64,000 bases of DNA from a virus: positions 2,527-66,526 of IMG/VR virus record IMGVR_UViG_3300026557_000003; one strand, written 5' to 3'. How positions within the stretch are numbered: the stretch's first letter is position 1; the number at the start of each line of letters is the position of its first letter. The translations under genes and the position numbers were made by a program. Below, in pieces: positions 41,837-51,217 of the stretch. The notes beneath the pieces are model-generated. The model was given only the letters and a program-made list of their open reading frames with translations. It was not told where the DNA came from and ran no database searches.

Positions 41837-41928
41837 GCAAGCGCAAAGGCATCTCACCCGAGTGCATCAGGAAAATCATCGCGGCGTGAGTAAAGCGGGC
41901 GGCGAAGATTAGGAGCGGGAAATGTTAA
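41833..41928 (+). pseudogene. Small ORF interrupted by an in-frame TGA
   Basis: MSKRKGISPECIRKIIAA*VKRAAKIRSGKC; AGAGGA RBS; ATGA coupling. Confidence 0.3.
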
Positions 41929-42209
41929 AGCATTATGTCGAACTGGATTATCCGGGAACATTCTTTCCCGAAACCAAAGTGAAGGAAATCGCATCGCGCG
42001 AAGATTTCCAGCCGCCATTCGGTAAGGGGCTGTACGCCTTCGCATTCTTTGATCGTGAAGAGGTCGAGTTGAACGGCGAAAAGCTAACCAGCGCAGCAAA
42101 GAATCGCCTGCTGGATAATGCCCGTATCAATGGATGGGACATACTGGTTCTCTGCCCTGCTGGCAATTGGCAGCCCCTTCAAGAGGGCGAATCGTTAATT
42201 GAGACATAG
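41922..42209 (+). CDS. Hypothetical protein
   Basis: AGGAG RBS. Confidence 0.6.
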   Translation: MLKHYVELDYPGTFFPETKVKEIASREDFQPPFGKGLYAFAFFDREEVELNGEKLTSAAKNRLLDNARINGWDILVLCPAGNWQPLQEGESLIET

Positions 42210-42296
42210 AGATTCCCGGCACCCAACGCGCTTCTCGTCTTGGGAGAGCGGGATTCGCCGGACCAGGGTGTCGGGAAAGATTGGAGAGGTAGCACG

Positions 42297-42557
42297 ATGG
42301 GCGAATATACCGGTATCTACGAGTTGACCTCTTTGAACTTGACCGGCCTTGGCGGCCCGATGGGCACCGAACGCGTTACGGCAAACTGGCGGCGATTCTA
42401 TGGCAGCTTTGAAGACGCAAAGTCAGCGGCCCAAAAAGATTATGTGCGCGGCGAAATTCACTGGCACTATAAGGCCGGCGGCTGTTCCTCGGGTGATTTA
42501 GGATATGTTGCATACGCAATTAGCGAGATTTGCACGGAGAAATCAGATGAAAAATAG
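42297..42557 (+). CDS. Hypothetical protein
   Basis: GGAGAGG RBS before ATG 42297. Confidence 0.55.
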   Translation: MGEYTGIYELTSLNLTGLGGPMGTERVTANWRRFYGSFEDAKSAAQKDYVRGEIHWHYKAGGCSSGDLGYVAYAISEICTEKSDEK

Positions 42558-47296: not shown

Positions 47297-47977
47297 ATGA
47301 ATTTTAATCCACACGAACAAGACTCTGAAACTCAAATCGCAATGGCAGAAGCTAGAAAGACAATGCTAAAGACGAACAAAATTACTGTTTTCGATATTGA
47401 GATTATCAAAGCAATTCCTGACCGCAATCAGGAGAATGACCCGACTATTAAATATTGCGGCGGCTGGCAGGATCACGCCGGAATGGGTATCTCAGTTATC
47501 GGAGCATATTCATACGCAGATGACCGTTATCGGGTTTTCCTCAAAGACAACTTTGGGCTATTCGAGGACCTGTTGCACGAATCAGATATTGTTGTGAGCT
47601 TCAACGGTCTAGCATTCGATAACCGCGTATTGGAAGCCTGTGGCATCAACCCGCCAGACGCGACAACCTACGATCTGTTGGTCGAAACCTGGGCTGCCGC
47701 TGGACTCGCGCCGAAGTTCAATTATAAGACACACGGCGGCTTTGGTCTTGACGCCGTATGTTCTGCGAATTTCGATCTGAACAAGACTGGACACGGCGCA
47801 CTTGCCCCCGTCCAATGGCAACAAGGCAAATACGGACACGTCATTGATTACTGTCTCGAAGACGTAAGATTAACCAAAAAACTGTTCGACCTGGCCACGG
47901 CGGGGCCAATCAAGAACCCGAAATCCGCAATTGGTGGAAGTTATTTGATGTTGCGGGATCCATTTATCGTGAAATGA
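47297..47977 (+). CDS. DEDD/RNase H-like 3'-5' exonuclease
   Basis: VFDIE, SFNGLAFD, YDL, LDAV, YCLEDVRLT. Confidence 0.85.
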   Translation: MNFNPHEQDSETQIAMAEARKTMLKTNKITVFDIEIIKAIPDRNQENDPTIKYCGGWQDHAGMGISVIGAYSYADDRYRVFLKDNFGLFEDLLHESDIVVSFNGLAFDNRVLEACGINPPDATTYDLLVETWAAAGLAPKFNYKTHGGFGLDAVCSANFDLNKTGHGALAPVQWQQGKYGHVIDYCLEDVRLTKKLFDLATAGPIKNPKSAIGGSYLMLRDPFIVK

Positions 47978-47996
47978 TCGATTATATGCTTACTTA

Positions 47997-48080
47997 TGCT
48001 AGAATAAGGTCGAGTCGAAAAGACGTTACCAGCGCCCTTTCGACTCTCACCTATACCACTCGTAACATAAGGAGCACGAG
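47997..48080 (+). promoter_or_regulatory. HNH-5 promoter and leader
   Basis: TGcTAGAAT; GAGTCGAAA/TTTCGACTC stem with CGTTACCAGCG loop; CTCACC; CTCGT-aacataaggagc-ACGAG. Confidence 0.7.
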
Positions 48081-48084
48081 CAAT

Positions 48085-48657
48085 ATGGCTGTCGATAAAT
48101 ATACCATACTCGCCAATCTACCATCTTCCGTGGTTGATCGTTTCTGGAAAAAGGTCGATAAACAGAATGGACCGATCCTTATGCACTGTTCTCGTCTCGG
48201 CCGTTGCTGGCAGTGGTTCGGAGACAGGAATCAGGGCGGCTACGGTAGTATGAGGCTTGGTTCTTCTTCTTGGGCGGCACGTGCCCGTGCGCATATTATT
48301 TCATGTGCCATCGACAGAAACGGAATACCAGAAGGCTCTCTGGTCCTGCATAAATGTGATAACCCCTCATGCGTAAGGCCTAGTCATTTATGGCCCGGCT
48401 CGCAACGCGAAAACGTGGCAGACATGATGGCAAAGAAGCGGGACCGCCGCCCTGGTTCCAGATCAGGCGTTGCTGTGAATTATTCTCGCGGCGAGGATCG
48501 TCACAATGCTCATTGCACGGAAGCGATCGTGCTGGCCATGCGAGCGGATTATATTCCCGGCGTTTTTGGCTGCAACAAGATAGCAAAAAAATATAACGTA
48601 GTATGCCGAGATGTCGTTGCTCGTATTATCAGGAGAGAAATATGGAAGCATATTTAG
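48085..48657 (+). CDS. HNH homing endonuclease (HNH-5)
   Basis: RFWKKVDK...CWQW...VLHKCDNPSCVRPSHLWPGSQRENVAD; TAAGGAG RBS. Confidence 0.92.
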   Translation: MAVDKYTILANLPSSVVDRFWKKVDKQNGPILMHCSRLGRCWQWFGDRNQGGYGSMRLGSSSWAARARAHIISCAIDRNGIPEGSLVLHKCDNPSCVRPSHLWPGSQRENVADMMAKKRDRRPGSRSGVAVNYSRGEDRHNAHCTEAIVLAMRADYIPGVFGCNKIAKKYNVVCRDVVARIIRREIWKHI

Positions 48658-48813
48658 ACGCACGTCTACTACGCCGTCACCATTCCACCGGGGCACGACG
48701 CTAAGGCAGATCGAATCCGCGCGCTAGGAATGGTGCAGATATTCAGGTGCGAGCGCGTGGCGAAGGTCAGGGATGTTGACCGGGAGTTACACCGGATGGT
48801 TCGTCGAGGTTGA
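48658..48813 (+). pseudogene. Probable remnant of a 52-aa gene whose start codon (47974) was separated by the HNH-5 cassette
   Basis: Removing 47977-48657 restores ATG ACG CAC... with an ATGA overlap on the exonuclease stop. Confidence 0.4.
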
Positions 48814-48816
48814 TAT

Positions 48817-48903
48817 GGCACGGGTGGCTGTAATGTAACAGTGTCGCGGTGCACCTTAAAAACAGGAGCGGAAATCTCAGTTCGAGTCTGAGCCCGTGCC
48901 CCA
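48817..48903 (+). tRNA. tRNA-like gene with canonical acceptor, D and T arms but an aberrant enlarged anticodon arm
   Basis: GCACGGG/CCCGTGC acceptor, G-1:C73, encoded CCA, CTCAG-TTCGAGT-CTGAG T arm, GCTG/CAGT D stem. Confidence 0.7.
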
Positions 48904-48919
48904 AAAGGAACGGATAAAT

Positions 48920-49123
48920 ATGCCTGAGTCACGGCGCGAAGATGAGTACATGGAGTAGTTCGGCGACGATGAAGAACACGGCGATCCTTTCTGTTATACC
49001 TGCTACGGACGCGGATTTGTAGTTAGATGCGTCGATGATATTTGCCACGGCAGCGACGAAGGCTGCATTCACGGCGACGGAAATGTACCGTGCCCGGACT
49101 GTAGCAGGAGGGAATGGGATTAA
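48920..49123 (+). pseudogene. DnaJ-like zinc-finger mini-protein interrupted by an in-frame TAG (48956)
   Basis: MPESRREDEYME*FGDDEEHGDPFCYTCYGRG...CPDC; AAGGA RBS; TAATG coupling to the next gene. Confidence 0.5.
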
Positions 49124-49950
49124 TGGCTGAAACGAAAATCGAATGGGCGACATATACATTTAATCCGTGGTTGGGTTGTACCAAGGTGTCACCCGCCTGC
49201 ACGCATTGCTATGCCGAATCGTGGGCAAAACGGAGCGGGCTGGTTCAGTGGGGTGATAATCCAAGGCGCAAAACAACAGATCAATATTGGCGTCAGCCTT
49301 TGAAATGGAACGAGTTGGCTAAAAGTGCGACTGTGAGGCCACGTGTTTTCTGCGCATCATTAGCTGACGTATTTGAGACAAATGAAGAGGTCGCCCCTTG
49401 GCGCAAAGAGTTTTTCAATCTGATTAGTAAGACTCCGAACCTTGATTGGCTTCTACTAACAAAGCGCCCTGAAAATATTCGCGCAATGCTACCGAATGAT
49501 TGGGGTATGGGGTATCCGAATATCTGGCTTGGTGCGACAGTTGAGAATCAGGAATATGCAGATAAGCGAATTCCGAACTTATTAGAGATCGACGCAAAAG
49601 TTTACTTTGTTTCCTGTGAGCCCCTATTGGGCGAGTTGAATTTAGAGCAATATCTTTATAATCGCTACCAGATGGGTGGAGCGCGACCGATGTATAATCA
49701 GGTCAATTGGGTTATTTGTGGTGGTGAGAGCGGTCCTGGCGCACGCCCGATGCACCCGGCTTGGGCTCGGTCACTCCAAGCTCAATGCGAGGCCGCTACT
49801 GTTCCTTTCCATTTTAAGCAATGGGGCGAATTTAGCCCGAACGTCTTAGGTATTAACGATTCGGTCCCACCTTCGAGAATAGGCAAGAAAGCTGCGGGCC
49901 GAATACTCGACGGTCGAACGTGGGATGAATTGCCAGCGGTAGCCAAATGA
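49123..49950 (+). CDS. DUF5131 / phage Gp37-Gp68 family protein (radical-SAM-like)
   Basis: TKIEW...WLGCTKVSPACTHCYAE, LLTKRPEN, FVSCEPLLG, WVICGGESG. Confidence 0.9.
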   Translation: MAETKIEWATYTFNPWLGCTKVSPACTHCYAESWAKRSGLVQWGDNPRRKTTDQYWRQPLKWNELAKSATVRPRVFCASLADVFETNEEVAPWRKEFFNLISKTPNLDWLLLTKRPENIRAMLPNDWGMGYPNIWLGATVENQEYADKRIPNLLEIDAKVYFVSCEPLLGELNLEQYLYNRYQMGGARPMYNQVNWVICGGESGPGARPMHPAWARSLQAQCEAATVPFHFKQWGEFSPNVLGINDSVPPSRIGKKAAGRILDGRTWDELPAVAK

Positions 49951-50240: not shown

Positions 50241-50642
50241 ATGCCCGATAATAAACCCACAACCGAAGTCTCGATTACCAATGACGCGGCCGAATGGCTG
50301 GAGTCGAGGAACGAACTGGTGGTTAGTCAACTGGACGCTGCCGATCTTGCCGATTGTTTTTACGATTCGCAGCCTATACTTGACGGGCTAACCGCTGCAT
50401 ATAAACGTGGCCGGGATGATGCGAATGCGCTGACCGCCAAGGACGCAAAAGAGAAAGATCGGGAAGTCAGCCAGATGGCGGCTCAGGTGCAGGAACTAAA
50501 GGCCACGCTTGACACGATGAAATACTGGATGGCTATCGACAAATGCGACTGTGATACCGAGCGCAAGGACGGCCACACGGTTAGAATGGACTACCCCAAA
50601 TCGCTTGAACTGGATTGGCATCTCGAAGATTGCTATTATTAA
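50241..50642 (+). CDS. Hypothetical protein
   Basis: AGGAG RBS. Confidence 0.6.
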   Translation: MPDNKPTTEVSITNDAAEWLESRNELVVSQLDAADLADCFYDSQPILDGLTAAYKRGRDDANALTAKDAKEKDREVSQMAAQVQELKATLDTMKYWMAIDKCDCDTERKDGHTVRMDYPKSLELDWHLEDCYY

Positions 50643-50809: not shown

Positions 50810-51217
50810 GTGGGCTGGACCGATCAGGAATTCGAAGATTTCCGCGCGAAGTCGAAATTGTTTGCCAGCGCCAAGCCCCCAAAGCGCGGCCATAGATCGA
50901 AGGAAAAGGAAACCCTCGGGCGATACCTAATGACCCATGGAACGACCTGGGCGCTCGAACATCGATTTCACCCCGTCCGGCTGTGGCGATTTGACTGGGC
51001 GATTACTTCGTTGAAGATCGCTGTTGAGTTTGAGGGTGGTGTATTCATTCCCAAGGGTGGCGGCCATACAAAAGGAATGGATTACTCGAAAGATTGTGAG
51101 AAATACTCAGAAGCAGCAATTCTCGGCTGGCTGGTCGTTAGATGTACAGCGCCGATGATTCGAAGCGGGCTGGCGTTTGACTTGATCGAGCGGGCTATTA
51201 AGGCCAGACAGAAGTAA
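50810..51217 (+). CDS. DUF559/Vsr-like endonuclease
   Basis: HRFHPVRLWRFDWA...IAVEFEGG...KDCEKYSEAAILGWLVVR. Confidence 0.8.
   Translation: MGWTDQEFEDFRAKSKLFASAKPPKRGHRSKEKETLGRYLMTHGTTWALEHRFHPVRLWRFDWAITSLKIAVEFEGGVFIPKGGGHTKGMDYSKDCEKYSEAAILGWLVVRCTAPMIRSGLAFDLIERAIKARQK

Follow-up and report, generated by a model that had tools for sequence, protein, structure and literature searches.

What kind of gene is an 87-nt element, embedded among the recombination and replication genes of a soil phage, that folds into the acceptor, D and T helices of a tRNA and forms no regular anticodon arm? We analysed it in a 64,000-nt stretch of viral DNA, referred to here as the window, which corresponds to bases 2527-66526 of a 69,197-bp IMG/VR soil-phage record rated 99% complete. 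The parts of the element and the genes around it are collected in the following table.

Table. The tRNA-shaped element, its parts and its flanking genes in window coordinates
Feature	Position	Strand	Basis
3'-5' exonuclease-like gene, upstream of the element	47297-47977	+	
HNH homing endonuclease gene, free-standing, 160 nt before the element	47974..48657	+	PHROGs and Pfam HNH matches
52-codon stop-free frame, no start codon at its head, in frame after the TAG stop of the HNH gene	48658-48813		
Entire tRNA-shaped element (87 nt; G-1 through encoded CCA)	48817..48903	+	sequence, scaffold scan, relaxed ARAGORN cloverleaf
G-1 and 5' acceptor strand GCACGGG; partner strand 48893-48900	48817..48824	+	8 Watson-Crick pairs, MFE fold
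D arm GCUG-UAAUGUAA-CAGU, alternatively a 5-bp stem with a 6-nt loop	48827..48842	+	sequence, folds
Aberrant anticodon region, UCGCG + 18 nt + AGCGG, 28 nt	48844..48871	+	folds, ARAGORN deletions
11 surplus nt ACCUUAAAAAC, register ambiguous by about 2 nt	48853..48863	+	ARAGORN deletion series
T arm CUCAG-UUCGAGU-CUGAG, fully canonical	48876..48892	+	sequence, MFE fold, scaffold scan
3' acceptor strand CCCGUGC, discriminator C73 and CCA	48893..48903	+	sequence
Small Cys-rich zinc-finger gene, start 17 nt after the CCA; TAG at 48956-48958	48920..49123	+	translation
DUF5131 (Gp37/Gp68) gene	49114..49950	+	Pfam PF07505, E=3e-85

The element shows several of the features that define canonical tRNAs: an acceptor helix of 7 bp and a T arm with a 5-bp stem and a TTCRANY-type loop. 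These are joined by a D stem that can be drawn with 4 bp (GCUG/CAGU) or with 5 bp (GCUGU/ACAGU), and by linkers comprising U8 and G9 after the acceptor strand, G26 after the D arm and a variable loop AAAU. Not one of the 17 base pairs in the acceptor, D and T helices is broken, and the canonical T loop and the CCA have likewise been retained. The G at 48817 (G-1) pairs with the C at 48900 (C73) and thereby lengthens the acceptor helix to 8 bp; the MFE fold keeps this 8-bp helix, a 5-bp D stem and the entire T arm. An earlier note on this DNA, made from the letters alone, had described the acceptor stem, T arm and CCA as textbook and the G-1:C73 pair as His-type, and both descriptions hold up against the sequence and the MFE fold, and the former also against a strict scaffold scan. 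To match, a sequence needed a T loop of the form TTCRANN closed by a 5-bp T stem, a 7-bp acceptor helix in which 6 or more pairs were Watson-Crick, and, in the right register, a D stem of 4 bp. Over both strands of 1.36 Mb of fetched DNA the scan returned three distinct matches, namely two genuine tRNAs and the element, while 50 shuffles of the 64-kb window yielded none. Thus, the scaffold is real and non-random. The stretch was also recovered, identical and at a word depth of 14, on an independent Logan contig from one run, which makes an assembly slip unlikely, though this run may be the source sample itself; by Logan k-mers it is the only DNA run that holds the stretch, and no RNA run is among the holders.

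In its encoded G-1 opposite C73 and its 8-bp acceptor helix the element resembles bacterial tRNA-His, and what it shares with the tRNA-His of both bacteria and phages includes U8, a variable loop of 4 nt, the canonical T arm and a CCA encoded in the gene. It departs from tRNA-His, whose anticodon is GUG, in having no GUG at positions 34-36, in its 18-nt loop and in U14 and U19. The D and T arms are separated by 32 nt in which, as the earlier note had stated and as our folds confirm, no 5-bp stem closes a 7-nt loop; the regular loop with U33 is thus missing. Between UCGCG and AGCGG there is instead a loop of 18 nt (GUGCACCUUAAAAACAGG), as against the normal 7, and G31 faces A39 in a mismatch. 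Counted from the 5' side this loop runs G32-U33-G34-C35-A36, with GUG sitting at positions 32-34, and counted from the side of the T arm it ends in CA-G37-G38. The 11 nt left over between the two counts are bordered by a CA...CA repeat, and hence the register of the insert is ambiguous by about 2 nt. The D loop carries U14, G18 and U19, whereas tRNAs nearly always have A14 and G19 at these invariant positions. Accordingly, of the D arm that had been regarded as textbook, the stem with its 4-5 bp stands and the loop does not.

Standard tRNA finders do not recognise the element. With default settings ARAGORN, one of the checks proposed in the earlier note, calls no tRNA in the entire window, and Rfam gives nothing at gathering scores and nothing at E<=10 on 301 nt. 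With ARAGORN relaxed to 70-80% of its threshold, the cloverleaf of the element is drawn with a proposed 11-nt "intron"; as such settings produce about one false call per kb, this low-threshold call is by itself no evidence. When 11 nt are deleted, with the deletion starting anywhere from position 35 to position 41 of the element, default ARAGORN recognises a tRNA of 75 nt whose anticodon, at position 34, is GCA in six of the seven registers. Thus, it is exactly 11 surplus nucleotides in the loop that block recognition. Since GUG is absent from 34-36, where the 5' count gives GCA, the isotype of the parent gene is not settled despite the His-type acceptor end.

The enlarged arm gives little indication of being a structure in its own right. 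The lowest-energy arm of the 28-nt region is UGC-A-CCU / UAAAAAC / AGG-A-GCG, at -3.7 kcal/mol; the extended arm previously put forward as the best fold (TCGC/GCGG plus CCT/AGG) turns out to be 2 kcal/mol worse. When the 11-nt insert is shuffled, 41% of the resulting arms are at least as stable as the native one, and when it is replaced by random 11-mers 85% are. As random and shuffled inserts so often do as well, nothing points to a sealed, rod-like or otherwise structured hairpin having been selected; nor is a conserved sealed hairpin in the anticodon loop in evidence, given the energy of this arm and the lack of recovered relatives. The sole 7-nt loop available to the element, UAAAAAC, would place A at position 33 and AAA at 34-36. 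Neither CUA nor UCA occurs in the element, and its single UUA has no placement at 34-36 of a closable loop.

Two further origins for the surplus nucleotides or the element as a whole were considered and rejected. An intron-containing tRNA is at odds with the folds, in which the bulge-helix-bulge motif expected at 37/38, a 4-bp helix with a 3-nt bulge at either end, is not seen, and with an insert of only 11 nt; a group I intron needs far more than that. For an attP fragment of a tRNA, both halves of the cloverleaf should not be present as they are here, and neither the integrase nor the resolvase domain (PF00589, PF00239) was found in the phage.

Sequence searches returned no homologue of the element. 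A blastn search with 48700-49000 against 50,697 phage records found none, and the exact 21-mer spanning T arm and acceptor strand had no match in IMG/VR. A gapped acceptor plus T-arm pattern likewise had no match in the JGI metagenomes, in which a 20-mer from the odd arm matched twice, in neither case with tRNA context. The gapped acceptor-stem pattern had at least 120 matches in GTDB genomes, and none of those listed had a T loop, so that these are chance matches. Within the phage genome itself no part of the element was found repeated elsewhere. We also used protein-anchored searches for relatives with the HNH gene, the DUF5131 gene, a primase-helicase-like gene and phrog_3657. The closest phages by their recombination genes are G002, with identities of 82/70/63% over three genes, and G003; in both the whole segment is absent and there is no tRNA anywhere in the genome, indicating that the lineage does not depend on a tRNA. 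The nearest DUF5131 homologue, 64% identical, lies in a different gene context. Homologues of the element are thus missing because the nearest phages reached through proteins are without the segment and the nearest DUF5131 gene sits elsewhere.

A genuine tRNA does occur at an equivalent position in a distant 71.7-kb phage (G001, IMGVR_UViG_3300044796_000229, locus L110). This is a tRNA-His(GTG) at L110 2247-2322 that scores 60 bits against RF00005, unlike the element, which fails both RF00005 and default ARAGORN. The two loci share the gene order of a tRNA or tRNA-like gene, a CxxCxGxG zinc finger (52 aa in G001) and DUF5131. The earlier note had asked for a comparison with homologues and had named normal tRNAs among them, with this copy merely mutated, as the outcome that would speak against its more elaborate readings: isolates, IMG/VR, JGI, GTDB and Logan offered no homologue to align, and the normal tRNA-His of G001 comes near to that outcome. 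The G001 gene is itself without the G-1:C73 pair, having T at both -1 and 73. By hand count its positional identity to the element is about 54% with the insert excluded, which we judge to be no higher than that between unrelated tRNAs. A zinc-finger gene directly upstream of DUF5131 was seen in three of about 160 loci (the window, L110 and L132), and in two of these three a tRNA or tRNA-like gene comes before the zinc finger; the combination is lacking in the other approximately 158 DUF5131 loci, among which only L144 has a tRNA (Thr) directly upstream. We take the element of the window to be the tRNA member of a small module that it has in common with G001, an assignment drawn from gene order only. 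In G001 an RlaP-like nucleotidyltransferase (PF10127, a family of the RNA repair pathway) precedes the tRNA-His(GTG) (L110 1285-3394).

The immediate surroundings of the element are mosaic. It lies among recombination and replication genes that form a block on the plus strand, directly behind a homing endonuclease gene whose homologues have a tRNA within 3 kb in three of 80 loci. Nucleotide similarity to two Logan contigs, L410 and L411, which carry the sole close relatives of the zinc-finger gene, starts at 48912, about 9 nt after the CCA of the element. On L410 the zinc-finger gene is preceded by homologues of the window genes 50241-50642 and 50810-51217, and on L411 by a homologue of the latter only. 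This onset of similarity just 3' of the element, together with the shuffled gene order, places the element at a mosaic junction. A scan for promoters and terminators near the element found nothing above shuffled sequence; as none stands out, the element would be co-transcribed with its neighbours. Pth2 (PF01981) was not found in the 69-kb genome at E<=1, a search in which the control genomes matched, and PHROGs and Pfam annotation revealed no defence-related partner gene next to the element.

The gene that follows the element is itself interrupted. It reads MPESRREDEYME-TAG-FGDDEEHGDPFCYTCYGRG..., with the in-frame TAG as codon 13 and no ATG, GTG or TTG thereafter. An intact 72-aa homologue (P0122), 85% identical and present on both L410 and L411, starts with MDMPESQREDEY... 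and encodes Gln (CAG) at the position of the TAG. Downstream of the TAG, comparison with P0122 gives a pS of 0.84 against a pN of 0.095, pointing to purifying selection on the gene that lasted until recently or is ongoing. In our reading a one-base change turned CAG into this stop, either as a recent nonsense mutation or with read-through being tolerated. Together with the start-less 52-codon frame behind the HNH cassette, which has no homologues among the fetched loci, it constitutes a further lesion in this short segment. Elsewhere in the genome TAG behaves as an ordinary stop: it terminates 24 plus-strand ORFs of at least 80 aa, and reading it as sense merges genes no more than reading TAA or TGA as sense does. 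The sole other TAG flanked by coding-like sequence, at 42207, separates same-frame ORFs in 41922-42557; as the second starts at an ATG of its own behind a GGAGAGG ribosome-binding site, these are probably two genes and not a case of read-through. Genome-wide recoding was not found.

A profile search with the zinc-finger family retrieved 100 small proteins, and two further contigs examined among their sources were without a tRNA; in phage isolates the family had no match. The window protein is a diverged member of this family (L132 2047-2262; P0123-P0130), which is widespread among phages and consists of small proteins some 65-85 aa in length. Its members are characterized by an acidic N-terminus and the motifs CxxCGG(D/E)G, GR(Y/W)GWD and CPNCxGSG, have no Pfam match and sometimes precede DUF5131.

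Taken together, we consider it somewhat probable that the element is a relic of a tRNA gene carried by the phage, with a His-type acceptor end and without the ability to decode. On this view it is a tRNA pseudogene, situated in an accessory segment that is mosaic and rich in homing endonucleases, and not a purpose-built RNA. Among the options raised in the earlier note, that of a decaying tRNA is the one favoured by the 11 surplus nucleotides, the lost D-loop bases, an arm unremarkable next to random inserts, the lack of a relative conserving it and the tRNA-His of G001. Decoding would have been lost through some 11 nt lodged in the former anticodon loop, the 31-39 mismatch and the disappearance of A14 and G19. 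With its acceptor/T-arm half intact and its location in a plus-strand operon, the transcript would probably still be processed by RNase P, with a cut at -1 and retention of the encoded CCA, and may be charged with histidine by HisRS. HisRS recognises bacterial tRNA-His mainly by G-1, paired with C73, and only weakly by the anticodon, and it accepts mini- and microhelices as substrates (PMC4357726). RNase P in turn relies mainly on the acceptor/T half (PMC4357726 and the RNase P papers cited there). As a counterpoint, none of the three helices has a stem mismatch, where long neutral decay would leave some; perfect helices suggest that the damage is recent or that the acceptor/T half is still under selection. 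The proposal of a tRNA remnant is drawn from a single copy of the element.

Two known systems offer partial parallels to such a remnant. Like the tRNA-Other of Bacillus cereus, a pseudo-tRNA without a function in translation (PMC3399842), the element is tRNA-derived, non-decoding and situated beside mobile DNA, and it may similarly persist as a tRNA-like module in a longer transcript. Unlike the element, which is known from its sequence alone, tRNA-Other lies on the chromosome at the edge of a genomic island, and both a phenotype and mapped transcripts have been demonstrated for it (PMC3399842). The second parallel is SegB of phage T4 (PMC2330249), where a homing endonuclease gene is again found directly beside a tRNA-type gene; the target site of SegB includes the conserved T-stem-loop motif of tRNA genes. 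SegB is a GIY-YIG enzyme situated among working tRNAs (PMC2330249), whereas the enzyme in the window belongs to the HNH type and the sole tRNA-type gene there is broken.

The intact helices invite another interpretation, in which the element is a non-decoding tRNA mimic kept by selection, whose G-1:C73 acceptor/T half is recognised, and perhaps histidylated, so that it serves as bait or sponge for a host factor attacking or sensing tRNA. We regard this as unlikely, if still deserving attention. The same modest credence goes to the specific targets that may be envisaged, such as a tRNA nuclease, a toxin acting on the acceptor end, or HisRS, with the anticodon arm deliberately disabled. Perfect acceptor, D and T helices, a canonical T loop and the CCA are what such a mimic would display, and phage tRNAs are known to counter defences that target tRNAs (PMC10264068, PMC11464382, PMC11555353): the tRNA-Lys of T5 acts against PARIS (PMC11464382) and a tRNA-Tyr against retron effectors (PMC11555353). 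The element resembles these defence-escaping tRNAs in being phage-encoded and tRNA-shaped with an altered anticodon loop. They, however, decode and carry point changes in a normal 7-nt loop (PMC10264068, PMC11464382, PMC11555353), whereas the element has an 11-nt insertion and cannot decode. A mimic of tRNA shape should moreover have retained the elbow bases A14 and G19, which are lost here. As no homologues were found, selection has left no visible trace; in addition, random inserts yield arms just as stable, and no defence-related partner gene adjoins the element.

Less probable again, and in our view improbable, is that the element acts in cis as a tRNA-like processing signal, where the polycistronic transcript would be severed by RNase P and by processing at the 3' side. 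With comparably low probability, such cuts would give the zinc-finger/DUF5131 mRNA a leader of 16 nt that carries its ribosome-binding site, and the HNH mRNA a structured 3' end. The position of the element within a plus-strand operon, with no promoter or terminator found nearby, and the AAGGA ribosome-binding site and ATG of the zinc-finger gene within 17 nt of the CCA would suit this role, for which the tRNA-like element within a larger RNA of B. cereus, tRNA-Other, is a precedent (PMC3399842). Yet the relatives of the zinc-finger gene on L410 and L411 do without any such element, and processing of this kind is a side effect to be expected of any tRNA relic in an operon. More generally, it appears doubtful that the element is maintained as a His-accepting, non-decoding look-alike, be it as bait or as a module for processing the zinc-finger/DUF5131 mRNA, with the amber codon of the next gene perhaps tied to it.

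That the element is an amber suppressor tRNA reading the in-frame UAG at 48956-48958 deserves hardly any credence: although the only clear TAG-interrupted gene begins just 17 nt after it and has its TAG opposite the Gln codon of intact homologues, ahead of a part under strong constraint, the element offers no CUA, no UUA at 34-36 of a closable loop and only AAA in its 7-nt loop, the genome uses TAG as an ordinary stop, the other candidate TAG probably falls between two genes, and the change from CAG needs a single base. The recoding tRNA contemplated in the earlier note is dismissed along with it, since none of CUA, UUA and UCA falls in a 7-nt loop that could close and the genome shows no recoding.

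Should the RNA still be in use, the element would represent a His-type non-decoding tRNA look-alike in a phage. If it is the tRNA remnant that we favour, it shows how a phage tRNA gene may die, namely by an insertion into the anticodon loop that leaves the acceptor/T half intact, and it implies that such genes are wholly missed by standard tRNA finders. The element marks a small mobile module, consisting of tRNA, zinc-finger and DUF5131 genes, that is common to otherwise unrelated soil phages.
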